Source: a virus (taxonomy: Duplodnaviria; Heunggongvirae; Uroviricota; Caudoviricetes). From it: DNA of 34,150 nt. Positions 8,491-30,233 of the stretch are shown in pieces (positions within the stretch are counted from its first letter, which is position 1; each line of letters opens with the position of its first letter). The position numbers and the translations under genes are program-made. The stretch lies in IMG/VR virus record IMGVR_UViG_2706794688_000010, one strand, 5' to 3'. Below the pieces are notes generated by a model, which was given only the letters and a program-made list of their open reading frames with translations, made no database searches and was not told the origin of the DNA.

Positions 8491-8667
8491 TTACTCCTGA
8501 GTTTTCCAGCCCATAGCCTTCCAGTTGTCAACTTCATCAGGATGAACATTAGCGATAGTTGGTGCGCCGGGAAACATCTGATAATCGGTCACCATAACCA
8601 CTAACTCAATTTGCGTTTTTTGTGCGGCTTCACGCTGTGCTCTTTGCTCTTTAGTTAATCCGGCCAT
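8491..8667 (-). CDS. Small hypothetical protein (58 aa)
   Basis: Hand-translated MAGLTKEQRAQREAAQKTQIELVVMVTDYQMFPGAPTIANVHPDEVDNWKAMGWKTQE; G-rich RBS before the ATG; not in the ORF track because under 60 aa. Confidence 0.4.
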   Translation of the reverse strand: MAGLTKEQRAQREAAQKTQIELVVMVTDYQMFPGAPTIANVHPDEVDNWKAMGWKTQE

Positions 8668-8676
8668 ATGCCCCCC

Positions 8677-8699
8677 ATTAAAAATGGGGCCGAAGCCCC
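8677..8699 (-). terminator. Rho-independent terminator after the major capsid gene
   Basis: Minus strand GGGGC-TTCG-GCCCC followed by ATTTTTAAT; lies between the capsid stop (8710) and the small ORF. Confidence 0.6.
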
Positions 8700-8709
8700 G
8701 TTTGAATGT

Positions 8710-9849
8710 TTAACCAAGAATCAGACAACCATGTGCCGGCTTCACTGATGAAACACCCCATGCCAGTCCAACTTCATAGCGCACCTGGCGATACTGACGA
8801 TACAGTGCAATCTGGAACGTAATCCCTGAAATCGGGTCCGTAACATTCATTACATCATCAGCATTATCGCCACCTTCCGGCATTGCCGGAGTACGGGATG
8901 CCAGCAGAAACGCGTTGCGATCAAACGCCATATTTGCAGTAAAGGCCCCAACAACTGTGATGGCAGTATCATCGGCCAGATCCTGACGCAGTCCGGGCGC
9001 TGCAAGAGTAATCAGATTGCTGGTCGCTGCTGCCACAACATACTGATTCGGATCACCAGCGAACGTAACAATCTGACCTGCAGAAATACTCCCCGAACCA
9101 GTATCAATGGAAATAAGAACATCGCCTTCTTTTTTCTCTCCATTCACGAGATAACCAGTTGCAGCAACCTTTGGCGCTCGTTTCACACCTGCCGAACTGT
9201 GAATATTGAATCCCTCCAGACGCCCCAACACGCCCTCACGCAGTAGCTGTTCAGTGCCGGATTCATTCACTTTAAACAATACAGACTGTTTTCCGCGCAA
9301 ATTAGCAATGGCAGTGGAGCCAAGCACCATCTGCAGATCGGTTGTCGGTGCGCCGTTATCCTCCAGAACCTGACGAGCCAGAGCAGCATCAGAAAGATCA
9401 TCTTTAACACCAAACGGCGTTGTCCCTGCGGTTCCCACGGCGCGGGAAGCACCGAAATACAACGCACCAAGATCAGCCTCAACCTCGTTTGCAAGGGCGC
9501 GAAAAGCCTGCTTGAACTGATCAGCCAGAATGGTGTTGTAAGTCCCTGAAGGGCCAAGAGCCAGTTGTTCTTCACCATTCCATTTAACCGGTGCCATTTT
9601 GGATTTAGTAATTTTTACATCAACAGTGCCAATATTTTGATCACCGGTATTCGGAGCTGACGGCCCCGGTACGATATCTTCGGTTTTCGCCTCAGGCGCA
9701 ACTGGCGCGGTTACCGTCTGATCTTTTGCTGCGGCGTCAGCTTTTGCGTTTTTTGCTACCGCAGGGATAAAACCTACCTGCTCACGGGATACAACATCCA
9801 GGGCGGTATAAATAGTCGGGATCAACCCGGTCAGGGTATTTCCAGCCAT
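8710..9849 (-). CDS. Major capsid protein
   Basis: Large ORF directly downstream of the scaffold gene; likely start MAGNTLTGLIPTIYTAL... at 9849 (the track ORF extends to 9942 but its first 31 codons lack an RBS); strong terminator follows. Confidence 0.75.
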   Translation of the reverse strand: MAGNTLTGLIPTIYTALDVVSREQVGFIPAVAKNAKADAAAKDQTVTAPVAPEAKTEDIVPGPSAPNTGDQNIGTVDVKITKSKMAPVKWNGEEQLALGPSGTYNTILADQFKQAFRALANEVEADLGALYFGASRAVGTAGTTPFGVKDDLSDAALARQVLEDNGAPTTDLQMVLGSTAIANLRGKQSVLFKVNESGTEQLLREGVLGRLEGFNIHSSAGVKRAPKVAATGYLVNGEKKEGDVLISIDTGSGSISAGQIVTFAGDPNQYVVAAATSNLITLAAPGLRQDLADDTAITVVGAFTANMAFDRNAFLLASRTPAMPEGGDNADDVMNVTDPISGITFQIALYRQYRQVRYEVGLAWGVSSVKPAHGCLILG

Positions 9850-9947
9850 AATTAAATATTCCTTAAAAATTTGCGTAATTGTGAATAGATGGAGTAATGA
9901 GCTATCCAGCCCTGACACCAGCTCCCATCCGGAAGCTGACAAATGTG

Positions 9948-10712
9948 TTAATCAACGATTGTGATACCGTCTTTCAATGCGTTTTGCTTACCTGCAACAT
10001 CCAGTGCATCAAAAGCAGAGCGTTTCATCGTTTTCTGACCAATATCATGCTGTGTCGGACGGGAGCCGCCGCCATTGTTGCCACTGGCTTTCAGGATGTA
10101 GTCTTTCTGAGGGTAATTTTCGACAAGGAACTCCAGCGCCTCATCAAACTGCGCCAGTTCGCCAGGCTTCGCGCGGGAATAAATTTTGTTGCCGGAAGCG
10201 TCATAAGCAACGATCCTCCCTTCTTCCACTTTGAATGCCTGCCCGAAGCGGGCTTGTAATAAATCTGCCGGAATCGCAATTTTATCGGCAATATATTTTG
10301 AACCCGCAAAACTACCGCCAATCATAGAATCGTAAAGCTGCTTCTCCAGCATCTGAGAGCGTTGCTTTTCTTCATCTAATTGCTGCTGAAAATTTTTCGT
10401 AATTTCTGCCTTAACCTGGTCAACCTGTCCCGCATCGAGCAGCTTTTTCTGGTCGATTTTTGACAGCATTTCCAGTGCCTCGATCGCCTTCTTCGGGTCT
10501 TCGATAGCGGCAAACTTAGCCAGTTTTTCCTCTGCAGCTTCTTTAGCCAGGCGATGATTTTTTGCCTCGCCATTAAGCTCTGTAATTTTTTTTGTCGCCA
10601 GCGGTGCATCGAAGCCAATTTCTTTACCATCGTCGTGCACATAAACTGGCAGGCCAGCAGTATCAATTTCTGCGTATTGTTTTCCGTTAATCTCGACCGT
10701 TTTCAGTTTCAT
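9948..10712 (-). CDS. Capsid scaffolding protein
   Basis: Start MKLKTVEINGKQ... at 10712; Lys/Glu/Ala/Gln-rich coiled-coil composition; between the MuF-like and capsid genes. Confidence 0.7.
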   Translation of the reverse strand: MKLKTVEINGKQYAEIDTAGLPVYVHDDGKEIGFDAPLATKKITELNGEAKNHRLAKEAAEEKLAKFAAIEDPKKAIEALEMLSKIDQKKLLDAGQVDQVKAEITKNFQQQLDEEKQRSQMLEKQLYDSMIGGSFAGSKYIADKIAIPADLLQARFGQAFKVEEGRIVAYDASGNKIYSRAKPGELAQFDEALEFLVENYPQKDYILKASGNNGGGSRPTQHDIGQKTMKRSAFDALDVAGKQNALKDGITIVD

Positions 10713-10770
10713 ATTAGTACCTGGTTTAAGTCTTCCGACAGTTACGCTGCTCACCATCCGGATCGCAGCA

Positions 10771-10796
10771 ATAAAAAAGGCCACCCGAAGGTAGCC
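10771..10796 (-). terminator. Intrinsic terminator after the MuF-like gene
   Basis: Minus strand GGCTACC-TTCG-GGTGGCC (one mismatch) followed by TTTTTTAT. Confidence 0.5.
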
Positions 10797-10816
10797 TGTT
10801 GTAATAAATGATTTAT

Positions 10817-11932
10817 TTAAATCCCTGCTTTTCTGAATACCTGTGCATCACGCTCACGGAGCTGCTTCAGCGTCAGCCATTCGCCTTTATCGGTGTAAAA
10901 TTCATCTGGCGACATACCACCATCCCGAATCAGCTTTGCTCGGCTTTCCCCCACAATCTGTTTTTGTCTGGTGTAAGGCTGACGCAAAAACCATTCCCTG
11001 TAGGTTGTATCTCCGGCCACCACGCCATCCATGCTGGCCCGCTCAGCCGGGGAAATATCGCGAACATCAATACCCAGTTCCTTCGCTGATTTCAGAATGA
11101 ACGTTTCCGTTGAGCGGCAGCAGAAATGAATTTTTCCCGGCCCCTGCAAATAAGGCACGCTGTGACCTACAGGTTTATTATTCAGCGTATATTTGAGGCG
11201 ATCCCTGATTCGACATTGTGGCGTAGTACGATTATCAAGCGTTGATAACCATTGCTTACCCTTAATCAAATCATTATTCGCGCTGGCAAAACTCTCACGG
11301 GCAGTAGCAGCAAGATGTCCAACCGCTGTTTTTGCAATGCTGGCCGCATTAGCCCGGCTCATCTGCAATGCACCATCCTGAAATCCCTTACTGACATGTC
11401 CCCGAATTTTTCTTGCGATCTGCTCATTGGTATCCCCCAGCAAAAAACCCTGACGCACTGTATTTGTTATGCGTCTGAGCCGATCCGCCTCAAGATCTGA
11501 GGCCCACTCACTGAGCAGTCGTCCCTGGAATGGTCGCGCCATTGCAGCGGCATAAAGTGCATCAGGAGAGATACCAACCAGAGGGTGAACATCAGCAACA
11601 AAATCAGGTAGCATAGAATCAAACAGACTTAACTGATAACCAGCCTCATAAATTGCCAGCTCGTTCAGCTCTCCGGAGAGACTGGTAAACATGCTGTTAA
11701 TAGCAGTGCGGTTAACCTCTCTGACGCTCGCCAGAAGTGACTCCAGGCGCTTAACGGTAAAACTACCTGGATCGAGGCTGTCCAGTGCTATCAGCAGGCG
11801 AGCAGTAAGTTCCGCATCGCTGTCATTCAGTATTTTCACCATTCTGGCAGCCACGCCAGTGCTATAGCGGGATATCCAGACTGCATGAGCAATTGATTCA
11901 TCACGCAGCCGTTCATTCACGGTTTGCATCAT
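10817..11932 (-). CDS. Head morphogenesis protein (phage Mu F-like / SPP1 gp7-like)
   Basis: 371 aa ORF directly after the portal gene, overlapping its end; contains ...LDNRTTPQCRIRD..., which I recall as typical of the Mu gpF family. Confidence 0.7.
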   Translation of the reverse strand: MMQTVNERLRDESIAHAVWISRYSTGVAARMVKILNDSDAELTARLLIALDSLDPGSFTVKRLESLLASVREVNRTAINSMFTSLSGELNELAIYEAGYQLSLFDSMLPDFVADVHPLVGISPDALYAAAMARPFQGRLLSEWASDLEADRLRRITNTVRQGFLLGDTNEQIARKIRGHVSKGFQDGALQMSRANAASIAKTAVGHLAATARESFASANNDLIKGKQWLSTLDNRTTPQCRIRDRLKYTLNNKPVGHSVPYLQGPGKIHFCCRSTETFILKSAKELGIDVRDISPAERASMDGVVAGDTTYREWFLRQPYTRQKQIVGESRAKLIRDGGMSPDEFYTDKGEWLTLKQLRERDAQVFRKAGI

Positions 11933-13321: not shown

Positions 13322-14632
13322 TTAAATCCGAAGTGATGTGACTCTTCCGGTCGGTTTGACAATAGGGAATTGCTTAACGATGAAATAACCTCCGGCATCA
13401 TTCGGGTGATCATTGCCAGATTTTTTATCAGGCTCCCCCTTCTCATCCCAGACCTGTTGCTCCAGAGATTCGGCATATAACGGGCAACGCTTCACATTAA
13501 CTTTATAGCGACGCTCACCATTGGCATTGCAGAACATTGCATTCATTGAGTTAACGCGATCTTTTACTGGCGGGTTCGAGCTGTTCACCACAACGTTAAA
13601 ACCAGCCTGCTTAAGCTGGGCTATATCCGTCGTACTTGCGTTACTTGATTTTCTGGAATCCCCGGAAGCATCTGGATAAATATAAATTTCCCTCACTTTC
13701 CGGTAATCATTCCCATCATACAGCCAGAAGCGTTCTTTAATGATGCGGATCATATCCGGCGTATCGTAGGCATTGATGATTTCAGTTACCGCACATGGAA
13801 GCCCCAAACGCAGCACATGGACGATTCCCGCCATCTTTCCAACGTTAAAATCCATCCCAATATAAATCGGCTCCCCTGGCTGCTCCACTTCTTCGCAATT
13901 ATTCAGTTTCCGGTCAAACTGATGGTAAACAGTACCACTTGTCAGGTTAGTAAACTGTCCTCGAAGATAGGCTTTAATCAGCTCTGGAGGGTATGATTCA
14001 AGAAGCGAAGGAATGTAATCTGCTGGCAGGTTCTTTTCATTATCGAAAGTAGATGCCTGCACCAGACCATACAGTGAGGCCAGCTCTGTTTTTTCACGCA
14101 CGGCTTTAACAAACTGCTCGTAGACAAATTTGAATCCTTCCGGCGTGGTTGTAACGTCAATACCGTTGCGAAGTCCATCAATCTTATAACGCATACGTGC
14201 AATTATCTTGCGCCACGCCGTTCTGGCTTTTTCCTTCGGCAAAATGTCCAGTTCATCCACCAACGCATTACCAATTTTGAAACCGACGATCGTTTGTGGC
14301 TTCTCCATCGATCTGCAGATAGTGGTTCCCCGATACTGGCGTCCGTAATAAAAGTGAACCTCTTTATTTCCCTCATTAATTTTTACGTTCAATCCCCAGT
14401 CAGCAGCAACTTCTTCCACTGTAGGGTAAAAAATATCGCGAATTTGGGGATACGTTGGCGCAAAATATCCCTGATTTATACCTGGATGCTCCCAAATCCC
14501 CTTGCATATGCCGCCACACCCAACCCATGTTTTGCCCGAGCCAAAACCAGCAATATAGGCTTTAAATTTATGGGGCATTGAAAGAAATCGCGCCTGAGGC
14601 ACATTAAGCGTCGGAGAGATCATCTTCATCAC
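13322..14632 (-). CDS. Terminase large subunit
   Basis: 436 aa; N-terminal Walker A-like motif AGFGSGKTWVG; overlaps the small terminase gene end; followed by portal. Confidence 0.85.
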   Translation of the reverse strand: MMKMISPTLNVPQARFLSMPHKFKAYIAGFGSGKTWVGCGGICKGIWEHPGINQGYFAPTYPQIRDIFYPTVEEVAADWGLNVKINEGNKEVHFYYGRQYRGTTICRSMEKPQTIVGFKIGNALVDELDILPKEKARTAWRKIIARMRYKIDGLRNGIDVTTTPEGFKFVYEQFVKAVREKTELASLYGLVQASTFDNEKNLPADYIPSLLESYPPELIKAYLRGQFTNLTSGTVYHQFDRKLNNCEEVEQPGEPIYIGMDFNVGKMAGIVHVLRLGLPCAVTEIINAYDTPDMIRIIKERFWLYDGNDYRKVREIYIYPDASGDSRKSSNASTTDIAQLKQAGFNVVVNSSNPPVKDRVNSMNAMFCNANGERRYKVNVKRCPLYAESLEQQVWDEKGEPDKKSGNDHPNDAGGYFIVKQFPIVKPTGRVTSLRI

Positions 14633-15698
14633 TCCTTACTCTGGCATCAACCACATTAATATTGATCGCCACAGGCTGGGGATGTTCATTATCTTCCACC
14701 GTTTCGATCTCTTTGCGCAGCTTCTGGTTTTCCATTCTGCGCCGTTCAATTTCCAGTTCCCGTAGCCGCTTATCTGCACATAAAGCCCCGCCAGCAGAAA
14801 ACAAACGCAACAATTCACGCCGGGCGGCAGCCTTATCCTCCAGCAGGATCTCAACGCCGAATTTTCCGAATTTTGCCCCTGCATATAATTGCCGCGCATC
14901 CCCATCAAGCAGAGTGGTATCAGCCATATAAAGCTGTCCCGTTCCCTCACCGCAGCACTTCGGGCAGTCCGGATTGGGTATGGCGTTATCAACAAAGCCG
15001 AGGCCTCCATATTCCGGTTCGGGTTTGCCATCTCTGGAAGCCTGCGCCGCTGCCTTGTCGAATTCTGCTATATCGCGCCACTGGTAGAGATGATTCTCGC
15101 CCCAGCAATAACGGCAGTTAACACGGCGAAATTGTGCAAGCTGATTGGGGTCGGCCAGGACAATAGCCATCAACTGACTCACTAGTAAATCCAGGTCTGC
15201 GGTATAGCGTTTCTGGTACTGATTGCGGAAGTAGCTGATAGCGCGAAAAACCCTGGCATTTCTAAGCATACGACTGGCGTTGCTGTTAGCTGTCGCACCT
15301 TGCCCCTCATAACCGGCTAGTCGGTACGCCTCTGTCGGCTTTTTACCCTGAGCAACAAGCATCGCAAACTTAGCCTGCTGGTCAGAAATGCCGAATTCAT
15401 CGGGACAGAACGAAAATTCCTCCGCGTCGCCCTCATTCAGGCCCGCATCGAATACTGGCTTTTTTTCCTGAGATTTTTCGTTCCGCTTTTGTGCAGTCTG
15501 CGCAGATTTTTTCTGCGCACTTTTTTGCGCAGTTTTGCACATTTCTGTCTGCGCATTTTTCGGAGTTTTTTTGATGTAACGACGGGCTGTTGCGTAATTC
15601 AGTCCCCTTGCTTCACACCATGCCACCGGAGATATACCGGAGCGGGTGTATTCAGCAATATACTCCTGCTGCAACGCCCCCCAGTCCGGTCTGCTCAT
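14604..15698 (-). CDS. Terminase small subunit (N-terminal HTH)
   Basis: 364 aa ORF immediately upstream of and overlapping the large terminase gene; basic N-terminal segment ...GLNYATARRYIKK... Confidence 0.65.
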   Translation of the reverse strand: MSRPDWGALQQEYIAEYTRSGISPVAWCEARGLNYATARRYIKKTPKNAQTEMCKTAQKSAQKKSAQTAQKRNEKSQEKKPVFDAGLNEGDAEEFSFCPDEFGISDQQAKFAMLVAQGKKPTEAYRLAGYEGQGATANSNASRMLRNARVFRAISYFRNQYQKRYTADLDLLVSQLMAIVLADPNQLAQFRRVNCRYCWGENHLYQWRDIAEFDKAAAQASRDGKPEPEYGGLGFVDNAIPNPDCPKCCGEGTGQLYMADTTLLDGDARQLYAGAKFGKFGVEILLEDKAAARRELLRLFSAGGALCADKRLRELEIERRRMENQKLRKEIETVEDNEHPQPVAININVVDARVRSDEDDLSDA

Positions 15699-15701: not shown

Positions 15702-15953
15702 TTAGTCCTGATTTTTATCCACCCTGAGTAGTTCGCGCAGAGCAAAGGCATCCCCTTTTCTGGCAAGCTTAAACAATGCCGCTCGTAACTCGGCTTCACC
15801 TTTCGCTCTGCCCTTACGGATGGCCGCATAAAAATCTGTCATTGCTTCCCGATTTTCTTTCAGTCGGTTCAGATCAACATCCAGAACGTCAGCGATTTGT
15901 TGTGCAGTCATCCGGCACGCTGCCAGAGACTCGACTTTCGAATACGGAATCAT
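15702..15953 (-). CDS. Small hypothetical protein (83 aa), possible DNA-binding
   Basis: ATG at 15953 preceded by GGGGGTGA; overlaps the 3' end of the upstream gene by 65 nt; Arg/Lys-rich helical composition. Confidence 0.45.
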   Translation of the reverse strand: MIPYSKVESLAACRMTAQQIADVLDVDLNRLKENREAMTDFYAAIRKGRAKGEAELRAALFKLARKGDAFALRELLRVDKNQD

Positions 15954-16839
15954 TTGTCACCCCCATTGATATGCAGGGTGTCTTCTTCCTGTATTTTTCG
16001 TGAAGGATTTTTACTGCAGCGTTGTTCCAGGTGACCTGATGGTGAATGCGTTTATGACTGGCACCCATAAGTGAGATTTTTACGCACGACGGCGCATACA
16101 TGACGGAGTAAAAACTTTTAACGTAGGTTCCGGAATCCAGATACAGCTCGGTCATTCCGCCGCTGTTTTTCTGCGTCTGTTTCTGCCCTAACTGGACAGC
16201 ACCGATCGTCATAAACAATTCACCACAGCGACCGAGATTCGTGTACGTATTCACATCCTCGTTAATGCGCCCCATGAATGAGAACGGTCGATCAACCGAA
16301 CAGATAAAGCTGTTCATTGCCTTGCGTTTCACCCACGAAGCATGGCCGCCATTGTCACCAAGAAAATCCCCGCCCTGCGACATAGCGATGGAAAGAGCAG
16401 GTATTGATTCGTAGTACGCAAGCATTTCAGAAAGGATCTCATCCAGTTTCCTTATCGGGAAATAGGCCTGGTCATAGTTGCGATCCACCCGAAACTGGAA
16501 CTCGTGATAATCATCATCGAGCTGAATGAAGTATTTACACCCGACCAGTTTTGCCTGGTCGAAACAGGCATTACGGGCGTAAAAAATTGAGCGGCGGTCA
16601 CTAAAATTATCGGCTTCGTCAAAACGACTAGCAATATCGGCTTTGGAAAATACCAGCACCTGTTCACCAAATTCAGCCATGTACTGATGCCGTGTCTTAT
16701 CTTCATCATCAACAACGATAAAAATTTTCCCGGTATAGCCAGCACGACGCAACGTCCGGTAAGTCAGAACTTTGTCCGGTCGCCCGTGAGTCAGAATAAA
16801 GGCGCAAAAATCATCACGCATATTCCTCCTCCCCGCCAT
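15889..16839 (-). CDS. GT-A fold (GT2-like) glycosyltransferase-like protein
   Basis: 316 aa; motif order CAFILTHGRP ... KIFIVVDDED ... FIQLDDDY mirrors the GT2 pattern (IIPTYNR ... IIVVDDGS ... DxD) with similar spacing. Alternative start at 16821. Confidence 0.5.
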   Translation of the reverse strand: MAGRRNMRDDFCAFILTHGRPDKVLTYRTLRRAGYTGKIFIVVDDEDKTRHQYMAEFGEQVLVFSKADIASRFDEADNFSDRRSIFYARNACFDQAKLVGCKYFIQLDDDYHEFQFRVDRNYDQAYFPIRKLDEILSEMLAYYESIPALSIAMSQGGDFLGDNGGHASWVKRKAMNSFICSVDRPFSFMGRINEDVNTYTNLGRCGELFMTIGAVQLGQKQTQKNSGGMTELYLDSGTYVKSFYSVMYAPSCVKISLMGASHKRIHHQVTWNNAAVKILHEKYRKKTPCISMGVTNDSVFESRVSGSVPDDCTTNR

Positions 16840-17602
16840 GCATGATCTCCACCATGCGCTGCGTCATTCGGACAAATCCATTTTCAATAGCCTGCTGATA
16901 ATCAATGATCACCAGCGCCGACTCCTCGAAAAGGCACTGAATTTCAGCGGGGGCATGAGCGTAATAGTCCGCAATTCTGCTGAAATTAAACACCGTGTGA
17001 CGTTCTGCTGCACACAGGAGGAATTTCTCAATATCAGGATCAAGGGACGCCGAACGTATCCGGCTGATCAGCTCCTGAGTTTTCGTATCGTCGTACAGTT
17101 CACTGATATCCGGTTTACCGCCTGACGGCTCATAAACAGGCGTATCAATTTTCGTCGTATACGGCTCCTCCTCATTTCCTGTACCGGGCAAAACATCCGT
17201 CAACAGTTCATCAATTTCTGCCGGGATGAAGCCTGTCAGGGAGACATCAAAATCAGCATTGATTAGGTCCGACAGCTCCATCCGCAACAGATCTTCATCC
17301 CAGCCAGCATTCATCGGCAGGCGATTATCTGCCAGGCGGTACGCCTTTTTCTGCTCATCCGTCAGGCCAGACAGAACAATGACCGGAACAGAATCCATTT
17401 TGAGCATTTCAGCCGCCATAACACGACCGTGACCCGCAATAATTTCGCCCTTTTCGTCAATCAGCACCGGATTAGTCCAGCCGAATTGCTTAATACTTTC
17501 TACCAGTTGTGCCACCTGCTCAGTACTGTGCGTCCTGGCGTTGTGCGCATACGGTGACAATTCTTGTAATGGGCGATAGACTATCTTTAATTTCTCGCTC
17601 AT
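16814..17602 (-). CDS. ParB-like nuclease domain protein
   Basis: N-terminus KLKIVYRPLQELSPYAHNARTHS...PVLIDEKGEIIAGHGRVMAA matches the ParB N-terminal domain pattern; acidic C-terminal half. Confidence 0.7.
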   Translation of the reverse strand: MSEKLKIVYRPLQELSPYAHNARTHSTEQVAQLVESIKQFGWTNPVLIDEKGEIIAGHGRVMAAEMLKMDSVPVIVLSGLTDEQKKAYRLADNRLPMNAGWDEDLLRMELSDLINADFDVSLTGFIPAEIDELLTDVLPGTGNEEEPYTTKIDTPVYEPSGGKPDISELYDDTKTQELISRIRSASLDPDIEKFLLCAAERHTVFNFSRIADYYAHAPAEIQCLFEESALVIIDYQQAIENGFVRMTQRMVEIMHGGEEEYA

Positions 17603-17616: not shown

Positions 17617-17652
17617 TGAATAAAACGCACCCCAGCAGCCAGTGCTACTGGG
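17617..17652 (-). terminator. Terminator-like hairpin after trkG, just upstream of the ParB-like gene RBS
   Basis: Minus strand CCCCAG-(12 nt loop)-CTGGGG followed by TGCGTTTTATTC. Confidence 0.45.
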
Positions 17653-17739
17653 GGCGGAGGTGTTGCTGGTAAAGTTAGGTATTGGATCAATGAGTGAGTC
17701 AACATAATATTAAACTCACAATTATAAATCAGCCATATA

Positions 17740-19042
17740 TTAGGAGCGCCAAAAAAAACCTGAAAACAATATAATAACAGGATAAATTTCAAGGCGACCA
17801 AGAATCATAGCTATGCACATTAAATATTTTGCAATGTCATTAAGCACTCCGAATGACGATGCAGTAGCCCCAAAACCTAATCCCATATTATTAATACATG
17901 CAGCCACTGTTGCAAATGATGTAAGAAAATCATATCCCATACCATTTAACACCAGTATAAAAAACACCGTGAAGAGAGTATAAAGAAAAAAGAAACTCCA
18001 TACAGACCTCATTACACGATCTGTAACTATCTTCCCTCCTACATTTACACTCAACAACGCTCTGGGATGAGAAAGCTGATTTATCTCGTGTTTGCTTTGT
18101 TTGAAAAGTATAAGAAATCGAAGTGACTTAATTCCACCACAGGTTGAACCTATACATCCCCCAAAGAAACTTGACAACAGCAAAAACACTATCGTGTGCG
18201 TGGGCCAGTTTGCATAATCCTGCGTAGCTAAACCATTATCAGTGAGCATGGAGCTGGCAAGAAAAAACGAATGAATAAAACTTCCATGCAAGTCATACAT
18301 ACCTATATGCCAGACCTGGAAAGAGGTAACAATGATCACCCCTAAGGCTATTAACAGAAAGAAACGAAGTTCAATATCTCTGATTAAAGGTTTTATCGTT
18401 TTTCTGCTAATAACAATATACCAAAGAGTGAAGTTGAAAGCCGATAGCAGGGAAAAAGAACCAGCCACCAGCTCAACCAAATAGTTATTAAAATATCCGA
18501 TACTCTCNNNNNNNNNNNNNNNNNNNNNNNNNNNNNNNNNNNNNNNNNNNNNNNNNNNNNNNNNNNNNNNNNNNNNNNNNNNNNNNNNNNNNNNNNNNNN
18601 NAACAATAACTCCTAAACCACCTATAAAATTTAACTGTGACCGATAGTACAAATATGCCCGAGGTAATGAACTAACATCATCAATTACAGTTGCTCCTGT
18701 TGTTGTTATTCCAGAAACCCCTTCAAACAGAGCATCAATGAACGTTAAATTAAGTTCTGAGTCAATCCATAAAGGGAATGCACTAATAACAGAAAACAAA
18801 ATCCAAAACATTACAATTATAATAAACCCATCACGGGTACGTAATTGAATGCCAGATTTCTTAGTTGTATACCACGCTCCGCCACCAATGCAAAAAAATA
18901 TAACGAAAGTTATAAAGAAAACGAACAGGCTTTTTTCTTTATAAAACAATGCTACAACCATTGGTGGCAACATTGAAAGACTATAGAGCCAAACCAGGAA
19001 CCCACACATATGAGTAACAACTCTTACATGAGATGTATTCAT
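17740..19042 (-). CDS. trkG: Trk-type potassium uptake protein TrkG (interrupted by N-run 18508-18601)
   Basis: N-terminus MNTSHVRVVTHMCGFLVWLYSLSMLPPMVVALFYKEKSLF... and C-terminus ...ILGRLEIYPVIILFSGFFWRS match the Rac-prophage TrkG as I recall it; multi-pass membrane protein; AT-rich gene directly downstream of Rz as in Rac. Confidence 0.85.
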
Positions 19043-19179
19043 ATCTAAATATTCTTTCAATTATAACCACCTTGCTGCAATATTATGATTATACTGTATA
19101 AAATTTAACTCCTCTTAGATCTTACTTCACTGTTCCTTATGAAACAATCATCAAAATGAATCATATTGTAGTTAAGATT

Positions 19180-19644
19180 TTACTTTAAACACTGCTCGGT
19201 TATGTATTGCTGAGCACCTTCAAGTTGGGCCTGCATCATTACCAGTCGTTCCCGGAGGGTGAAATAATCCCGTTCAGCGGTGTCTGCCAGTCGGGGGGAG
19301 GCTGCATTATCCACGCCGGAGGCGGTGGTGGCTTCACGCACTGACTGACAGACTGCTTTGATGTGCAACCGACGACGACCAGCGGCAACATCATCACGCA
19401 GAGCATCATTTTCAGCTTTCGCATCAGCTAACTCCTTCGTGTATTTTGCATCGAGCGCAGCAACATCACGCTGACGCATCTGCATGTCAGTAATTGCCGC
19501 GTTCGCCAGCTTCAGTTCTCTGGCATTTTTGTCGCGCTGGGCTTTGTAGGTAATGGCGTTATCACGGTAATGATTAACAGCCCATGACAGGCAGACGATG
19601 ATGCAGATAACCAGAGCGGAGATAATCGCGGTTACTCTGTTCAT
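19180..19644 (-). CDS. Rz: i-spanin Rz
   Basis: [101 protein letters not shown]... is near-identical to lambda Rz. Confidence 0.9.
19239..19424 (-). CDS. Rz1: o-spanin Rz1 (embedded in Rz, +1 frame)
   Basis: [52 protein letters not shown]... lipobox and proline-rich, as lambda Rz1. Confidence 0.85.
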
Positions 19645-20138
19645 TGCTGACCCCACAAACAGATTTCACGCTCAATCTCACGACGAGTCATGAGACCTTT
19701 CCATTGCTTACCGCCAGCATATGTCCAGCGACGTAGCTGATCACATGCGCCTTTGATATCGCCCTGGTTTATTTTGCGAAGAAGCGTCGATGTTCTGAAA
19801 TTACCAGCACCCACGTTGTAAACGAACGAGTAAAGAGCGCCGCGCGTTGTTTCCGGTATATCGACTTTGATGTACGGGTTAATTTGTCTGGCGACAGTGG
19901 CAAGGTCTTTATTCAAGAGTGTTTTGCATTCTGCTTTGGTATACGTTTTACCGAGCATGATGTCTTTTCCTGTATGCCCGTGACATACAGTCCATACACC
20001 AACAATATCTTTGTATGGTATGTAGCTGACACCTTCCAGACCATCGTTACCACTTGGGCCAGTGATTAACACTGATGCTATAGCAATTGCTCCGCCACCA
20101 ATAGCAGCAGCAACGACTTTTCGTAATGATGGAGGCAT
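19641..20138 (-). CDS. R: SAR endolysin (phage 21 R-type lysozyme)
   Basis: 165 aa; N-terminal signal-anchor-release segment [19 protein letters not shown] followed by a lysozyme domain; matches my recollection of R21. Confidence 0.85.
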
Positions 20139-20353
20139 TATTCACCTCTCGCAGCCTTGCGCTTATCTTCTTTAATCTTGAAATAAAGGTTTGTCAGGTA
20201 CGTCAGCAGGCCAAATACCAGACTACCCAGCACACCGATTGCAGCCCACTGTGACGGAGTTACTCTATCGAGCAACTGTAAAAACCAGTAGCCAGCACTG
20301 CCTGCGGAGGTGCCGTAGGCAATGCCTGTTGAAATTTTGTCCATGGATTTCAT
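20138..20353 (-). CDS. S: Pinholin (phage 21 S-type holin, dual-start MKSMDK)
   Basis: 71 aa from the ATG at 20353 (GGAGGTGA RBS): [71 protein letters not shown], two TMDs and dual start as in S21. Confidence 0.85.
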
Positions 20354-20604: not shown

Positions 20605-21000
20605 CTAACCTCGCATGTCAAAGCCAGATTTCTGAAAATCTCTGTAGACTTCCGGATTGTTGAAGGCCGGAAATTTGGCTTTATGAGCTGCGGACTTTAT
20701 CGCTTCGCAATAGGCTTTATCACCGTTACTGGTAGATATTTTTAACGCCGTGCCATCCTGAGAGAATTCCATATGCAACCTGCATTTTTTCCCTTTCCAG
20801 TTATGCGGCTCATCAAGTTTGGCATTAATTGCAGCTCTGATTCCCCGCGCTTGCGCCCCCCATTCATCCTGATCATCCCAGCGTCCTGAACTGCAACTAC
20901 CTGTAGCAGTAGTTTTGTGGCAATCTGAAGGGTGTAAAGGTGTGCATCCCGCAACAAAACCGACCCAAAAAGTCAACATAACGATTTTCTTTAATCCCAC
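20605..21000 (-). CDS. Lipoprotein with TolA C-terminal domain (domain III)-like region, copy 2
   Basis: GTG start with GAGGAG RBS; signal peptide plus lipobox (…VGFVAGC); C-terminal ...GKKCRLHMEFSQDGTALKIS...GDKAYCEAIKSAAHKAKFPAFNNPEVYRDFQKSGFDMRG parallels the other copy. Confidence 0.6.
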   Translation of the reverse strand: MGLKKIVMLTFWVGFVAGCTPLHPSDCHKTTATGSCSSGRWDDQDEWGAQARGIRAAINAKLDEPHNWKGKKCRLHMEFSQDGTALKISTSNGDKAYCEAIKSAAHKAKFPAFNNPEVYRDFQKSGFDMRG

Positions 21001-21150: not shown

Positions 21151-21579
21151 TCAGGGTTTAAAATCCAGCACCCCATTTTGAAATACTTTATATACTTCCG
21201 GCGAAGGGGGGGCAGGTATATCAGCATTCTTTATCGCATTCATCGCTTCACGACATAAATCGAGGTCTCCACTTTCTCTTTTAACCTCCAGTAGAAGGCC
21301 ATTCGGGGCCATATGCATTCTCAGTGTACACTCTTTTCCTGAATACTTACTCGCATCCCCGAACTGTTTTTCGATGGCGCTCTTGATTTGATGGGCATAC
21401 AGACGGATATCCTCACTAACATCAGAAGTACGTTCAGATGAACTCACATACTGTGTCTCTATTGCTTTATCGGAGTAATATGATGTACGGTCATGATAAT
21501 TTGTCGATACAGCATCAGTGCACCCGATAATAATCCCACTAATAATCAACGTAAGAATTGATGCGCTACGAAAACCCAT
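21151..21579 (-). CDS. Lipoprotein with TolA C-terminal domain (domain III)-like region, copy 1
   Basis: Signal peptide plus lipobox (…IISGIIIGC); C-terminal HQIKSAIEKQFGDASKYSGKECTLRMHMAPNGLLLEVKRESGDLDLCREAMNAIKNADIPAPPSPEVYKVFQNGVLDFKP closely resembles my recollection of the E. coli TolA C-terminus (…GKTCTLRIKLAPDGMLL…PPSQAVYEVFKNAPLDFKP). Confidence 0.7.
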   Translation of the reverse strand: MGFRSASILTLIISGIIIGCTDAVSTNYHDRTSYYSDKAIETQYVSSSERTSDVSEDIRLYAHQIKSAIEKQFGDASKYSGKECTLRMHMAPNGLLLEVKRESGDLDLCREAMNAIKNADIPAPPSPEVYKVFQNGVLDFKP

Positions 21580-22196: not shown

Positions 22197-22646
22197 GGTC
22201 AATACAAAGGATGCTTCGTCTTTATTATAGTAATCTGAGGCGTCGGGTGTCTTGTATCAGACAACATATTGTCCCGCTAAACAGCGAATTACAAACCACC
22301 CTNNNNNNNNNNNNNNNNNNNNNNNNNNNNNNNNNNNNNNNNNNNNNNNNNNNNNNNNNNNNNNNNNNNNNNNNNNNNNNNNNNNNNNNNNNNNNNNNNN
22401 NNNNNNNNNNNNNNNNNNNNNNNNNNNNNNNNNNNNNNNNNNNNNNNNNNNNNNNNNNNNNNNNNNNNNNNNNNNNNNNNNNNNNNNNNNNNNNNNNNNN
22501 NNNNNNNNNNNNNNNNNNNNNNNNNNNNNNNNNNNNNNNNNNNNNNNNNNNNNNNNNNNNNNNNNNNNNNNNNNNNNNNNNNCAATCCGCCTCGCGATAC
22601 AGCTTTGCGAAGCATAGCAAAATTGAAGCAGTTTATACGTAAGAAA

Positions 22647-22984: not shown

Positions 22985-23234
22985 NNNNNNNNNNNNNNNN
23001 NNNNNNNNNNNNNNNNNNNNNNNNNNNNNNNNNNNNNNNNNNNNNNNNNNNNNNNNNNNNNNNNNNNNNNNNNNNNNNNNNNNNNNNNNNNNNNNNNNNN
23101 NNNNNNNNNNNNNNNNNNNNNNNNNNNNNNNNNNNNNNNNNNNNNNNNNNNNNNNNNNNNNNNNNNNNNNNNNNNNNNNNNNNNNNNNNNNNNNNNNNNN
23201 NNNNNNNNNNNNNNNNNNNNNNNNNNNNNNNNNN

Positions 23235-24078: not shown

Positions 24079-24881
24079 TTCTCAATCTCTCGATGGCGCA
24101 GCGCAGCAGATGCCAGTTGTTCAGGCTGACGAATAAAGTATAAATAAACTGGCTATGGTGTAAAGCCCCACATAGCATGAACAAACACTACATATCAAAT
24201 AGCTGGTACAAGGATAGAAATACGACACTTATTATTAAAANNNNNNNNNNNNNNNNNNNNNNNNNNNNNNNNNNNNNNNNNNNNNNNNNNNNNNNNNNNN
24301 NNNNNNNNNNNNNNNNNNNNNNNNNNNNNNNNNNNNNNNNNNNNNNNNNNNNNNNNNNNNNNNNNNNNNNNNNNNNNNNNNNNNNNNNNNNNNNNNNNNN
24401 NNNNNNNNNNNNNNNNNNNNNNNNNNNNNNNNNNNNNNNNNNNNNNNNNNNNNNNNNNNNNNNNNNNNNNNNNNNNNNNNNNNNNNNNNNNNNNNNNNNN
24501 NNNNNNNNNNACTCAAGTCATTAACATTTGATAAGATATATCTAAAAGGACGCCTTTACATTATTTATGCGTATATAATTTATTTATATACACAGTAAAG
24601 GTATCCTGGGAAAATATTTATCGTTAAAAAATACATCATAAATAATTAAGCTGAAATTTCAGAACACAACTAATACACACAATAAGGTTCAGTAACAGTA
24701 ATCTATGTGGACTACATCGAGATTTTTTGATTAAACTTTAATAACTTATTCCTAACACACAGAATGCATAAACTAAAAGTAAAACAAATAGTTATACGAA
24801 AAACAACCATATTTATTCTATCTTCTCCTCTAATCAACATATCAATTATGTGTTTCATAACAGCTTGACATAACCCTCCAA

Positions 24882-25878: not shown

Positions 25879-26880
25879 TTAGTAATCTGCGTGTTTCGCA
25901 CTTTTCAGAAATGCTTTCATATTTTCATTAGGTCGCTCAATTTCGAAGTTACTTCCATATAACTCTTGTAATTTTGGCCATAACTTACTTAATAACCCTC
26001 TCCTGCGATAAAATGGATGTATCCAAACGGTAGATAGGTACGGAGAATTTGCATTTGAATTGTTTATTGTGACCAGCCCAACTAAACATTGTCGATAACC
26101 ACTATTATCCATTGATTGTATTTCTTCGACGAATGGATACGCGATTACATCAGTCCAACCATGATCGGTTGTATCCCATTGCATTCCGTCATGACATTCC
26201 TTCGACTGATAGCGGCGTAAAGCTACACACGCGAGCTTTTGCCAATCTGGAGAATTAATTGTGATCTCTTCATCGTATGACGCGCCTATTGGAGCGGGTA
26301 TTGGTCTGATTAATCCAGCATGGCATTCATCATAGAACTTCATGTTTCCCTCAGAAACGTTGTGTACGTTGGGTTGCTCCATGTGTGCGCCATTCAAAAA
26401 TAGCTCTGATAGTAGTGTATCTACACTGTAATCTTTATTGATTATTGTCGGCTTAGAGTTTTTCTTATTAAGGCCGCGAGTAACGATTTTTTGATCAATG
26501 TTAACAACATGGAATAATCCGTCGGGGAGGCTAGCGAACCACGATGGGGCATCGGACCAGAATAGCATGCCTTTTGTACTTCTTAAGAGTTTAATTAAGT
26601 TAATACAAGCTTCTTCACTAGTCTTGCCGTTGATGCGAAGTATGTTAGGACTAAAGTAATATTCATCCATATCAGGGAATGCAGCTTCGCAAAACTCCTG
26701 TACATAATTTAGCACCTGGATTCTACAGAGATCATCATAGCTGGTAATAACTAAGGGGGTATCTTCATTACTATTATGATTATCAATAATGCAATCTATA
26801 GCGAGACTTACTGCTTTGCGTATCACTTCAGTTGAATCTAACGACTCTAAAAATTTTGTCTTTCGTGTGCGAATATCCAT
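25879..26880 (-). CDS. Hypothetical protein, 333 aa, possible C-terminal GNAT-like acetyltransferase motif
   Basis: Second gene of an AT-rich two-gene cassette, 16 nt after the upstream gene; C-terminal ...CLVGLVTINN...YLSTVWIHPFYRRRGLLSKLW... resembles GNAT motif A (h-x-V-h-P-x-Y-R-x-x-G); motif-level only. Confidence 0.55.
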   Translation of the reverse strand: MDIRTRKTKFLESLDSTEVIRKAVSLAIDCIIDNHNSNEDTPLVITSYDDLCRIQVLNYVQEFCEAAFPDMDEYYFSPNILRINGKTSEEACINLIKLLRSTKGMLFWSDAPSWFASLPDGLFHVVNIDQKIVTRGLNKKNSKPTIINKDYSVDTLLSELFLNGAHMEQPNVHNVSEGNMKFYDECHAGLIRPIPAPIGASYDEEITINSPDWQKLACVALRRYQSKECHDGMQWDTTDHGWTDVIAYPFVEEIQSMDNSGYRQCLVGLVTINNSNANSPYLSTVWIHPFYRRRGLLSKLWPKLQELYGSNFEIERPNENMKAFLKSAKHADY

Positions 26881-26895: not shown

Positions 26896-27918
26896 TTAAA
26901 ATTCATGAATGAACGGTTTGTCATCTGGTTGCAAAATGGTGGTTTTATTCGTTGCTACATTTAAACTGTTGTAGAGCATAATTGCCAGGTTCGATGCATT
27001 TTCAATCAGCGTTTCAAGATCCTGGTCTGTAATCACTACGAGGTTCCCTTCTTTATCCTTTCCACCACGATGCACTAAGTGATTTCGATTGAGGGTTGCC
27101 AATTCAATAGCTTCTATCGGACAGTCTTTTTGTACTTTTATATCGAATGTAGCTTCATAGCGGTCGATTACCTTTTTAGTGCTATGCCAGCTTGCACTGA
27201 TCAAGTGTTCCTTGATTGACCTGATTAGCTCTCCCCTAATTTTCTCGATGGGTTCACCCTTGAAAGGCAACGCAGCAATATCTTTGCTTACTTTAAATTC
27301 AGTCTTACCTTTTTCTATACAATTGGCTATGTAGACATCATCTTTCTCTATAGAATTAATGAATAGCTCAACATAAAGCGTTTCCAAAGCTGTAATAACA
27401 TTCGTGTAGAGCAAACTAAGCAAGTGGTTTTTTTGCTGTTGTTCAGTTTTATCTTTTGCAAGTTTTTTTATTTTATCGATATTATCAATGAATTTTAAAT
27501 ACGGATTACCGGAAGACGTTACAGCGTCGTAGATATCATCATCGTACCAATCATCTATATTATTTGAGTTTCCAGACCAGTCAAAACATTGTGTTTGTAA
27601 TTCATCTACTAATTCCTCAATATACTCAGATTTAACATATTGACCGAAGATGGATTGTAGTTCTTCGCTCGCATCATACGGCCCGCCATATATGTAAGCA
27701 TAGCCACCTTCTCTACTTTCATACGGACAAGCATTTGCCGGATCTTCAAAGTTTTCAAAGAACCAGTTTTTCATTACTTCGAGTTGATCTTTTTTGCTTA
27801 TGTATTTTAAAGATTTTAGTGGAACTTTCTTTCCATTAACCTCGAAAACAATTTTCACGATGTAACGCTCCCTTGTATCAATTGCGCAACTATTATACCA
27901 CAGCGAAATACAGGGCAT
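26896..27918 (-). CDS. Hypothetical protein, ~341 aa, possible HEPN-like Rx4H motif
   Basis: ATG at 27918 preceded by AAGGAGG (6-nt spacer); an alternative GTG at 27855 follows an internal TGGTATAAT and AAGGGAG; C-terminal ...ATLNRNHLVHRGG... contains R-N-x3-H; acidic central region; low GC. Confidence 0.55.
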   Translation of the reverse strand: MPCISLWYNSCAIDTRERYIVKIVFEVNGKKVPLKSLKYISKKDQLEVMKNWFFENFEDPANACPYESREGGYAYIYGGPYDASEELQSIFGQYVKSEYIEELVDELQTQCFDWSGNSNNIDDWYDDDIYDAVTSSGNPYLKFIDNIDKIKKLAKDKTEQQQKNHLLSLLYTNVITALETLYVELFINSIEKDDVYIANCIEKGKTEFKVSKDIAALPFKGEPIEKIRGELIRSIKEHLISASWHSTKKVIDRYEATFDIKVQKDCPIEAIELATLNRNHLVHRGGKDKEGNLVVITDQDLETLIENASNLAIMLYNSLNVATNKTTILQPDDKPFIHEF

Positions 27919-28056
27919 AACCTGCCTCCTTAAACTAACATACCATGAGCCAGCAATGTCCGCTATTGGCACAAAGCGGACAACCACGCTAGCTCTCCCC
28001 TGTGCCAGAAAAATGTCAATTTACATATGAACTAATGCTCTTTGATCTAGTAACGT

Positions 28057-29272: not shown

Positions 29273-29338
29273 TTACTTCTCAATTCCTGGCTGGACGACA
29301 TTCGGACGCCAGCTCTCCCAGTTAAAATTCACCCATCG
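29273..29338 (-). pseudogene. 3' fragment of a second DnaC-like (YdaV-like) gene, remainder in N-run
   Basis: Encodes ...[21 protein letters not shown]; about 37 nt identical to the 3' end of ydaV at 31255-31300. Confidence 0.4.
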
Positions 29339-29588
29339 NNNNNNNNNNNNNNNNNNNNNNNNNNNNNNNNNNNNNNNNNNNNNNNNNNNNNNNNNNNNNN
29401 NNNNNNNNNNNNNNNNNNNNNNNNNNNNNNNNNNNNNNNNNNNNNNNNNNNNNNNNNNNNNNNNNNNNNNNNNNNNNNNNNNNNNNNNNNNNNNNNNNNN
29501 NNNNNNNNNNNNNNNNNNNNNNNNNNNNNNNNNNNNNNNNNNNNNNNNNNNNNNNNNNNNNNNNNNNNNNNNNNNNNNNNNNNNNNNN

Positions 29589-30233
29589 GATAAGAGGGCG
29601 TCCCTGAGATTTGCGGTGTAGATTGGTATCGCGCAGAGAATACACACAGCCACAATATTCCTGCTGATAGAATTTTTCGCGCTTGCTGATTTCAATCATA
29701 CGGGACGAGCCGCCCTGCTTGCGCCAGTTATAATCCCAGTACACCATGCCCGGATAATGCGCGACGGCTCGCCGCCCACAGTCGTTAACCTGCTGCATAT
29801 TTTTCCAGCGTGAAATGCCCAGTGAACTGCTGATCACACTGAAACCATTTTCAGCGGCGTACAGCGCTGTCCGCTCAAAACGCATGTCAAAACACATGGT
29901 GCAACGGATCCCTCGTTCGGGCTCCCATTCCATTCCTTTGGCTCGTTCAAACCAGTTGTCTGTGTCGTAATCAGCATCAATAAACGGCACGCCGTGTTGT
30001 TCAGCAAAGCGAATATTCTCATCCTTACGAATTAAATACTCTTTCTGAGGATGAATGTTCGGGTTGTAGAAAAAGATGGTGTAGTCGATTCCCGAGGCCT
30101 GAAGCGCCTCCATCACCTCACCGGAACATGGAGCACAGCAAGAGTGCAGTAGTAGTTTGTTTGCCCCGTTTGGGAGCTCCAATTTGGGCCGTTTGAAATC
30201 AGCAACTGTCATAAATATGTTTATTGGGGTCAT
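29589..30233 (-). CDS. QueH-like (DUF208) epoxyqueuosine reductase-like protein, C-terminus in N-run
   Basis: N-terminal [17 protein letters not shown] plus downstream Cys motifs ([17 protein letters not shown]) fit my recollection of the DUF208/QueH Fe-S family; weak RBS. Confidence 0.5.

Follow-up and report, generated by a model that had tools for sequence, protein, structure and literature searches.

Organization of the ParB/TAGT locus

The window considered here is the whole 34,150-nucleotide (nt) stretch of IMG/VR record IMGVR_UViG_2706794688_000010, a Rac-like lambdoid prophage that is 99.7% identical to a prophage of Escherichia coli EC2. Its genes run from tail genes through capsid and terminase genes to trkG and a lysis cassette, and on to the ydaSTUV/immunity region. 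Between trkG and the terminase genes lie two genes that form the subject of this report, one encoding a ParB-like protein (the ParB partner) and the other a glycosyltransferase of the TAGT (TET-associated glycosyltransferase) family. A first-pass annotation, made from the letters alone, had placed two overlapping genes here, and both are minus-strand open reading frames (ORFs) with the following layout.

16814-17602, minus strand: ParB partner gene, 262 amino acids (aa), the full-length form of K-12 ynaK (ORF, Pfam ParB_N, PHROG 620, purifying selection)
17195-17602, minus strand: ParB partner residues 1-136, a ParB/Srx-fold N-domain with a helical extension (HMMER, Foldseek)
16817-17194, minus strand: ParB partner residues 137-262, the YTxKIxxPxYEP linker and the helical C-module (alignments, neighborhoods)
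15889-16821, minus strand: TAGT-family GT-A glycosyltransferase gene, 310 aa from Met7 (PF20691, PHROG 842, AlphaFold2 model)
15889-16839, minus strand: the same gene from an alternative start, the first ATG at 16839, giving 316 aa (ORF list)
16814-16834, minus strand: gene junction, with a Shine-Dalgarno sequence at 16834-16825, the Met7 ATG at 16821-16819 and the ParB stop TGA at 16816-16814 (sequence)

The Shine-Dalgarno sequence of the Met7 start is GGGGAGGAGG, and the ATG overlaps the ParB stop as ATGCGTGA, an overlap of 8 nt; the junction as a whole reads GGGGAGGAGGAAT-ATG-CGT-GA. Because of the strong Shine-Dalgarno sequence and the overlap with the ParB stop, Met7 is probably the true start of TAGT. 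The resulting 310-aa form is the one used by PGAP and by most database entries and clusters. Judged by its sequence, the boundary between the two genes is a translational-coupling junction.

The TAGT-family glycosyltransferase

The downstream protein matches Pfam PF20691 at 118.8 bits (cutoff 27.5; E 4.1e-34) over profile positions 4-205 of 205 and PHROG 842 at E 8e-104, and PGAP names it 'GREB1-related protein'. It belongs to the TAGT family, which comprises 1,325 clusters at 50% identity. The motifs THGRP, VVDDED and QLDDDY, read as a GT-A series in the first-pass annotation, are all found in the 316-aa translation and lie on conserved columns of the family. In an alignment of 85 family sequences (Met7 numbering), R14, D41, D102-D104/Y105 and N187/D189 occupy invariant or near-invariant columns. 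The family-invariant set (the HGR arginine, the DDED aspartate, ARN, the LDDDY DxD, QGGD and NEDVN) is complete in the window protein.

An AlphaFold2 (AF2) model of the protein, built with 85 homologues, has a predicted local distance difference test (pLDDT) score of 90.4. The top neighbors of the model in the PDB are GT-A-fold nucleotide-sugar enzymes, mostly glycosyltransferases (SpsA, TarP/TarS, chondroitin polymerase, ppGalNAc-T2 and GpgS), the remainder being ADP-glucose pyrophosphorylase chains; a nucleoside glycosyltransferase (AvpGT with Ara-A) is also among the neighbors. In the viral structure library BFVD the best matches are TAGT-domain proteins with TM-scores up to 0.87, and a T-even-type beta-glucosyl-HMC-alpha-glucosyltransferase aligns over 285 columns, near full length, at a TM-score of ~0.6. 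Profile and fold searches of both proteins of the pair keep the 316-aa protein inside the GT-A fold. The earlier description 'GT-A (GT2-like)' thus stands as to the fold, on the TAGT profile, the AF2 model and the DxD motif, but 'GT2-like' is imprecise for a member of a specific TAGT family.

TAGT proteins are neutral to basic, with isoelectric points (pI) of about 7-9.4 in non-halophiles. Neither TAGT nor the ParB partner has a transmembrane segment, and no signal peptide was found. The model and motifs point to a TAGT-family glycosyltransferase of GT-A type that is soluble and depends on a metal, its catalytic activity being a prediction.

Long TAGT representatives are fusions to S-adenosylmethionine (SAM)-methyltransferase, sulfotransferase, P-loop kinase-like or second TAGT domains. 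Such fusions are found in records P0248, P0252, P0278, P0290, P0268, P0266, P0269, P0302 and P0312 and at 10001-11719 of locus L147; the P-loop kinase-like domain (GxxxxGKS) is N-terminal and the sulfotransferase is of the carbohydrate type. The fusions hint that some lineages make glycans that are methylated, sulfated, phosphorylated or extended.

The ParB-like partner and its C-module

The upstream protein scores above the gathering cutoff of Pfam ParB_N (PF02195; 29.3 bits, cutoff 26.3; E 8.7e-7) and matches PHROG 620 at E 1.7e-90. Its N-domain is aligned by HMMER to Spo0J/ParB structures, and Foldseek returns Noc, ParB-CDP, PadC and KorB (E 4e-7 to 1e-5) over ~137 columns, which bears out the original call of a ParB N-terminal-domain protein. 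Box II reads A-G57-H58-G-R60, and N21, R60 and N93 are invariant. The N-domain shares 30-50% identity with its counterparts in phage adenine methyltransferases and also matches PADLOC MTase_II (E 1.5e-38) and PHROG 498 (E 6e-51). One ParB-methyltransferase fusion, in Streptococcus phage Javan422, lies directly upstream of the terminase. Sulfiredoxin and a serine kinase, both ATP-using enzymes of the ParB/Srx fold, are structural neighbors of the N-domain, which is probably a nucleoside triphosphate (NTP)-binding switch. A 2025 survey described phage ParB folds that are fused to DNA methyltransferases and that bind CTP, ATP or GTP; it did not mention glycosyltransferases.

A canonical partition ParB of a ParABS system was considered and rejected. 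The protein scores 38.1 bits against TIGR00180 (cutoff 58.45), it has no helix-turn-helix or known dimerization domain, and only its ~137 N-terminal columns align to ParB structures. Box II is AGHGR and not GERRxR, there is no parA in the prophage, and there are no notable repeats near the genes.

The C-module occupies residues ~147-245 of the ParB partner. Its consensus, including the linker, is YTxKIxxPVYEP...RHxVFD...IAxYYAHA...SALVIIDxxxAxxxGF, and the linker motif YTxKIxxPxYEP is invariant in TAGT-linked partners. Searches of Pfam and the PDB with the C-module gave no family and no credible relative, only noise. TAGT-linked partners from E. coli, Lactobacillus, the haloarchaeal virus HHTV-2 and metagenomes were aligned with stand-alone ParBs and one ParB-methyltransferase fusion. 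An N-domain of ~135 residues is common to all of the aligned proteins whereas the C-module is present in TAGT-linked proteins only. It is absent from the stand-alone pre-terminase ParBs of Yersinia phage vB_YpM_39 and Vibrio phage R19R, and in the fusion the methyltransferase occupies its position. Across a phage collection the ParB N-domain occurs in 432 records and the C-module in 28, and in every one of these 28 a TAGT gene lies immediately downstream. Eight TAGT records without a C-module are fragmented copies or very distant TAGTs.

A C-module profile search collected 3,700 proteins in which the module is either free-standing (115-200 aa) or placed behind ParB_N (230-290 aa). The lytic Vibrio phage pv27 (191 kb) encodes a free-standing C-module of 139 aa, 53% identical to residues 136-244 of the window protein, directly upstream of TAGT; the two genes lie inside a replication cluster and there is no ParB N-domain in the locus. 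TAGT is likewise adjacent in all five metagenomic loci with a free-standing C-module that were sampled. Locus L169 encodes the ParB N-domain and the C-module in two distinct neighboring genes, and in locus L171 (8105-10387) DNA polymerase A is directly followed by two TAGT paralogues with a C-module gene between them. Loci L170, L172 and L173 have N6/N4 DNA methyltransferase neighbors. Locus L170 also lies beside NAD-salvage genes, and locus L169 has an additional gene between its C-module and TAGT genes, for a CTP_transf_like nucleotidyltransferase fused to a His_Phos_1 phosphatase (2603-3556), which may serve to make the donor substrate.

Since the C-module occurs beside TAGT both free-standing and fused, the system is tripartite and modular, consisting of ParB N-domain, C-module and TAGT, with the C-module and TAGT as the constant core. 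The C-module is proposed, by analogy, to be a docking or activator domain for the glycosyltransferase. Rosetta-stone evidence in the form of a ParB-TAGT fusion was not found among the long TAGT representatives, and none of the best 120 of the 3,700 C-module proteins is fused to TAGT.

Distribution and selection

In 42 IMG/VR loci with a TAGT 55-92% identical to that of the window, a ParB-like ORF is always present (42/42), and in 41 it is immediately upstream with an overlapping or abutting stop and start. The Rac-type terS and terL genes are kept only in the closer loci (TAGT identity at least 73%). In distant loci the pair precedes Terminase_3, Terminase_4/TerL or GpA-type terminases with unrelated portals, so that at least four terminase families in total follow it. 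ParB is also directly upstream of TAGT in the metagenomic loci L163-L165. One pair-carrying metagenomic phage (L163 at 17837-20316, L164 at 8659-11138) has four consecutive small GT2 genes just downstream of the capsid gene; the extra genes suggest that a complex glycan is built, either on its DNA or on its virion.

The pair extends to viruses of very different hosts. In Lactobacillus phage phi jlb1 the gene order is late activator, ParB, TAGT (with an 11-nt overlap), terS, terL and portal. In the genome records of L. delbrueckii phages c5 and phiLdb and of Nocardia phage NTR1 the pair lies at the left end, and in that of PMBT4 at the right end. In HHTV-2, genes 21 and 22 form the pair, with an overlapping or abutting junction, 2.9 kb upstream of terL. 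Some pairs or modules lie in replication clusters with polymerase, primase and helicase genes.

Purifying selection on the two genes is strong. For TAGT the proportion of nonsynonymous differences (pN) is 0.04-0.17 against a saturated synonymous proportion (pS, ~0.8), with a dN/dS ratio of ~0.06, and the gene evolves more slowly than terS. The ParB partner has a pN of 0.11-0.28, again with saturated pS (~0.8). When a 2.2-kb query spanning the pair was compared by megablast with 5,426 complete E. coli genomes, 1,619 contained a match and 867 matched at 80% query coverage or more, a figure (up to about 16%) that describes coverage of the DNA match and not the integrity of the ORFs in each genome.

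The K-12 remnant and the annotation of the pair

In the Rac prophage of K-12 an 11.6-kb deletion joins window position 17349, within the ParB gene, to position 5791 in the tail region. The deletion removed the glycosyltransferase, terminase, portal and capsid genes and left ynaK as the first ~85 codons of the ParB gene. YnaK (b1365, 87 aa) is 96.6% identical to the ParB partner over the first 89 residues and has the same place after trkG. The first-pass annotation had stated that only fragments of this region survive in K-12, which applies to the ParB gene but not to the glycosyltransferase gene, which is wholly absent. The K-12 MG1655 gene (locus L162, 1425377-1425640) is a ParB N-domain fragment with neither C-module nor enzyme. 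A genome-wide antibiotic survival screen of 2026 reported that ynaK raised the minimum inhibitory concentrations of six antibiotics 3- to 6-fold (PMC12924614). As a deletion remnant without most of the ParB partner, YnaK cannot report the function of the intact pair.

The ynaK name also appears in annotation of the intact gene. In the EC2 prophage (L001 21746-22003, equivalent to window ~17345-17602) PGAP calls a 258-nt 'ynaK' pseudogene, 'missing C-terminus', whose DNA is 100% identical to that of the window. This call is probably an artifact of the reference proteins behind the annotation. As a result, ~520 nt carry no annotation and the full-length ParB partner is missing from the NCBI protein sets.

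Comparison with known systems

The T6 beta-glucosyl-HMC-alpha-glucosyltransferase, which adds a second glucose to glucosyl-5-hydroxymethylcytosine (glucosyl-5hmC), is assigned to the same Pfam and PHROG families as the window TAGT. Together with T2 and with phage GT-A enzymes associated with TET, it shares with the window protein the GT-A fold and a motif series; TAGT-type GT-A phage enzymes that glycosylate 5hmC in DNA have the series R..DDD..EDY/F, and a series of this type is also present in the window TAGT. Direct sequence similarity to the T6 enzyme is not detectable. Kinship is thus carried by profiles and fold only, and the RefSeq/PHROG name is therefore a family-level transfer that does not imply orthology. 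The substrates differ as well: the T6 enzyme acts on glucosyl-5hmC and the TET-linked enzymes on 5hmC, whereas no C5-methylase or TET was found in the prophage. In the T6 genome the gene adjoins one annotated thymidylate synthase, presumably a thymidylate-synthase-like deoxycytidine monophosphate (dCMP) hydroxymethylase, and the alpha-glucosyltransferase gene is ~12 kb away. Unlike the T2/T6 system, the prophage has no genes for a dCMP hydroxymethylase or for an alpha- or beta-glucosyltransferase. The window TAGT falls in the class of 'solitary' TAGTs, which a 2026 study found in 288 of 753 glycosyltransferase-encoding phages and left functionally undefined.

The closest parallel to the two-gene arrangement is a subclass of phage thymine dioxygenases. 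O'Toole and coworkers showed that these enzymes need a ParB-like protein on double-stranded DNA (5mYOX176/ParB176; O'Toole et al., PNAS 2026, PMC13229309). [quoted passage not shown] Glycosyltransferases, ParBs and terminases were the top co-occurring genes of phage 5mYOX (PMC13229309). The pair resembles 5mYOX176/ParB176 in that an enzyme is accompanied by an adjacent ParB-like protein with N- and C-domains and no recognizable DNA-binding domain, an activator-type layout, and in that the genes often lie beside terminase and glycosyltransferase genes. It differs in that the enzyme is a glycosyltransferase and not an iron/2-oxoglutarate (Fe/2OG) dioxygenase, no dioxygenase having been found, and in that the C-module is TAGT-specific and also occurs free-standing. 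In the same study glycosyltransferases are associated mainly with the ParB-independent 5mYOX subclass, and the ParB-dependent one with kinases and amino-acid transferases (PMC13229309).

Two further systems bear comparison. ParB-N6/N4 methyltransferase fusions share the N-domain subtype and the position upstream of the terminase genes, but there the effector is fused whereas here it is a separate, translationally coupled glycosyltransferase with an adaptor module. DndB is alike in being a ParB-fold protein that accompanies DNA-modification machinery (2025 survey), although the chemistry and the partner enzymes differ. DpdB is likewise the ParB-fold partner of DpdA in 7-deazaguanine DNA modification.

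Proposed function of the pair

With a little better than even confidence, the pair is interpreted by analogy as a two-component, late-expressed phage DNA-glycosylation module in which the ParB-fold partner would activate TAGT on double-stranded DNA. This direction is favored because the family glycosylates phage DNA, because the N-domain is of a type that is fused to DNA methyltransferases, and because ParB-like proteins are experimentally required by another phage DNA-modifying enzyme. In the mechanism envisaged, the TAGT enzyme would use a host nucleotide-sugar donor. The C-module would bind the glycosyltransferase physically, docking or activating it on double-stranded DNA, while the linker would tie the C-module to the ParB/Srx N-domain. 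The docking and activation step is proposed because of the analogy with ParB-dependent dioxygenases and the strict coupling of C-module and TAGT. Contact with DNA would come from the neutral-to-basic enzyme, the partner being acidic. Translational coupling would ensure that both proteins are co-produced just before or during packaging of the genome by the terminase; in lytic phages, a position in the replication module would couple the reaction to DNA synthesis. The exported DNA would bear sugars on an acceptor group and these may hinder the nucleases of the next host, giving a protective role. The first-pass annotation had suggested a DNA or virion modification with an anti-restriction function. 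DNA modification remains the best-supported direction, by the family and the type of ParB, but the DNA substrate and the anti-restriction effect are conjectural, and no source of a hydroxymethyl base was found, a difficulty not foreseen in that annotation.

Several observations weigh against DNA as the target. BLASTP gave no significant alignment between the T6 enzyme and the window TAGT, and hhalign gave a probability of 0.15%. The ParB partner is strongly acidic (pI ~4.5) and has no evident DNA-binding domain. In the literature searched, DNA glycosyltransferases all use a hydroxymethyl- or hydroxy-pyrimidine, or a sugar attached to one. Pfam scans of the ORFs and PADLOC found no TET/5mYOX, hydroxymethylase or C5-methylase in the window. 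There is also no hydroxymethyl-base source, thymidylate-synthase-like hydroxymethylases included, in the PGAP annotation of the EC2 prophage (whose pair region is 100% identical), in the complete 38-kb phi jlb1 genome, among the 25 families listed of 67 (from 150 neighbor clusters; the other 42 are singletons), or in eight Pfam-annotated loci. The Pfam TET/JBP model can miss phage 5mYOX enzymes, which limits the Pfam negatives for this prophage (PMC13229309). A literature search, which covered HHTV-2, found no report of modified DNA in pair-carrying phages.

An overlooked divergent 5mYOX is unlikely as a general explanation because the genomes are compact; in phi jlb1 the unassigned ORFs are too small for such an enzyme, except for a 722-aa protein of the tail region. 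No acceptor is assigned, since no enzyme making 5hmC or 5-hydroxymethyluracil (5hmU) was found. The lack of a precursor enzyme means that the acceptor would be new in DNA or that the target is something other than DNA. A specific form of the first alternative, in which the pair would put the sugar directly on a canonical base or another DNA position with the C-module as obligatory activator, is tentative and on balance rather unlikely.

The main rival to a DNA target is a protein target, in which the glycosyltransferase would modify a capsid, portal, terminase or host protein or the ParB partner itself. This is unlikely overall. The glycosyltransferase gene heads a structural and packaging operon, one related phage has four GT2 genes right after the capsid gene, and no hydroxymethyl-base source was found for the classical DNA reaction. 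TAGT fusions to sugar-tailoring domains (methyltransferase, sulfotransferase) suit any glycan-building role. In mycobacteriophages, capsid and tail proteins are glycosylated by GT-A enzymes. GREB1, an animal protein derived from TAGT, is reported to O-GlcNAcylate estrogen receptor alpha (ER-alpha), which likewise counts against a DNA target. A protein target fits poorly with the position of C-module and TAGT in lytic phages, among replication and not structural genes, and with a partner N-domain of the type fused to DNA methyltransferases. The terminase, portal and capsid families beside the pair are unrelated from locus to locus, which leaves no conserved substrate except the partner.

A small-molecule or nucleotide target is very unlikely. 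The pair might then, for instance, glycosylate or hydrolyze a nucleotide or nucleotide-sugar, with the ParB domain as an NTP-binding or kinase-like catalyst, to give a signal or a metabolite-depleting counter-defense. ATP-using sulfiredoxin and the serine kinase are near the N-domain and ParB folds bind CTP, ATP or GTP; the nucleotidyltransferase/phosphatase insertion of L169, the NAD-salvage neighbors of L170 and AvpGT with Ara-A among the PDB neighbors also agree with such a role. The ParB N-domain is nevertheless dispensable in the many lineages with a free-standing C-module and so is no obligatory catalytic partner, the closest relatives in the family act on DNA, and the persistent position near packaging or replication genes would be left unexplained.

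Lysogenic conversion, in which a surface glycan (O-antigen, teichoic acid or capsule) is modified to change host receptors while ParB is an unrelated packaging or partition neighbor, is highly improbable. TarP, a prophage GT-A enzyme, modifies wall teichoic acid, and TarP/TarS are structural neighbors of the window protein. The absence of a transmembrane segment or signal peptide, and of flippase or Gtr-type partners, argues against it, as does the location of the gene in the late operon, away from the integrase/immunity region. The same pair occurs in viruses of E. coli, Lactobacillus, Nocardia and Haloarcula, whose envelopes are wholly different, and the strict co-occurrence of C-module and TAGT makes their adjacency non-accidental. 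The first-pass annotation had likewise disfavored O-antigen conversion, and the lack of transmembrane segments and the presence of the pair in Gram-negative, Gram-positive and archaeal viruses agree with it.

It is scarcely credible that the pair is a decaying, functionless remnant of a methyltransferase/TET/glycosyltransferase cluster in Rac-like prophages. In favor of it, the family is named for its TET association, metaviromes show 5mYOX together with ParB, glycosyltransferase and terminase genes, and many E. coli copies are truncated or deletion-fused, that of K-12 included, but selection is strongly purifying with saturated synonymous sites and a TAGT that changes more slowly than terS, all invariant residues are intact, the TET-less pair is kept in phages of different bacterial phyla and also in a virus of archaea, and 867 complete E. 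coli genomes match at least 80% of the 2.2-kb query.

Other features of the window

The genes that flank the pair are listed below.

15702-15953, minus strand: small ORF between TAGT and terS, 83 aa (69 aa in PGAP) (PHROG 309, terS-like segment)
14604-15698, minus strand: terS (Pfam Terminase_2)
13322-14632, minus strand: terL (Pfam Terminase_6N/6C)
13322-15698, minus strand: terS and terL together, the packaging genes preceded by the ParB/TAGT pair
17740-19060: trkG, interrupted by a run of masked bases (N run)
17630-17653, minus strand: hairpin resembling a terminator, located past the end of trkG and 28 nt before the ParB start (consensus scan only)

Six N runs (611-860, 18508-18601, 22303-22582, 22985-23234, 24241-24510 and 29339-29588) make ORF calls across them unreliable, and hide the middle of trkG and part of a QueH-like ORF. 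Promoter/terminator and repeat scans around the pair found only the hairpin listed above and repeats within the terS coding region, and the repeat scans found no parS-like element. Late transcription presumably extends into the pair by antitermination.

The 83-aa ORF is kept only in enterobacterial loci with a TAGT of at least 73% identity, and is context outside the portable ParB/TAGT pair. Its start overlaps by 65 nt the C-terminal tail of the Rac-type TAGT, which comprises ~25 residues (~286-310; window 15889-15965). This tail is absent from 288-aa homologues, has low model confidence and is not conserved; it is probably a read-through extension without a structural role. In the 5' part of terS, a ~21-nt sequence (TTTTTCTGCGCA...) occurs three times at close spacing (window 15508-15564), which gives the protein a KTAQKSAQKKSAQTAQK repeat. 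P22-type phages have pac sites inside the terS gene, and the terS repeat could be a pac-site-like element.

A QueH (epoxyqueuosine reductase)-like ORF of 303 aa lies in the early region (29322-30233, minus strand; PF02677 E 4.6e-65; PHROG 3217), partly under the last N run and within a ~1.9-kb segment that is absent from the EC2 prophage. A queuosine-pathway enzyme is unusual in a prophage and might have a link to queuosine in tRNA (tRNA-Q) or to 7-deazaguanine chemistry. A functional link between this ORF, 12 kb away, and the pair was considered and rejected, because prophages that retain the pair and match in all other respects do not have the segment.

Two low-GC ORFs at 25879-26880 and 26896-27987 (minus strand; 333 and 363 aa; PHROGs 16994 and 17908) give weak GNAT and HEPN/RES-NTD hints and had no match in PADLOC; they look like a moron, possibly a defense or toxin system. 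ORFs at 20605-21000 and 21151-21579 (minus strand), between the lysis cassette and the Q-region, encode TolA C-terminal domains and are annotated in EC2 too. They may be superinfection-exclusion factors or decoys for colicin or phage entry.

Significance

The TAGT family, the 'solitary' TAGTs and the co-occurrence of ParB annotations with phage glycosyltransferase/5mYOX clusters were already known. The literature searched did not contain the strict two-gene, three-module architecture, the dedicated and unannotated C-module, the breadth of the pair over bacterial and archaeal viruses, or its consistent lack of a recognizable precursor-making enzyme. The solitary TAGT class thereby gains a concrete, testable architecture with a dedicated partner domain. 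Two labels are misleading, the truncated ynaK pseudogene of PGAP and the T2/T6 activity name in RefSeq and PHROG.

In the current model, post-replicative phage DNA sugars arise through a methylase or hydroxymethylase, then a dioxygenase and then a glycosyltransferase. Should the pair modify DNA with no need for a hydroxymethyl precursor, this would be a new modification chemistry, and the role of ParB-fold activators would be widened from dioxygenases to glycosyltransferases. If the sugar is placed directly on a canonical base or another DNA position, Rac-like prophages with such chemistry would be present in up to about 16% of complete E. coli genomes, and viruses of Firmicutes, Actinobacteria and haloarchaea, both temperate and lytic, would possess it as well. 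The prophage is very common in E. coli, so genetic testing should be easy. The pair could have consequences for sequencing signals, for the transfer of prophages and for the evasion of restriction.

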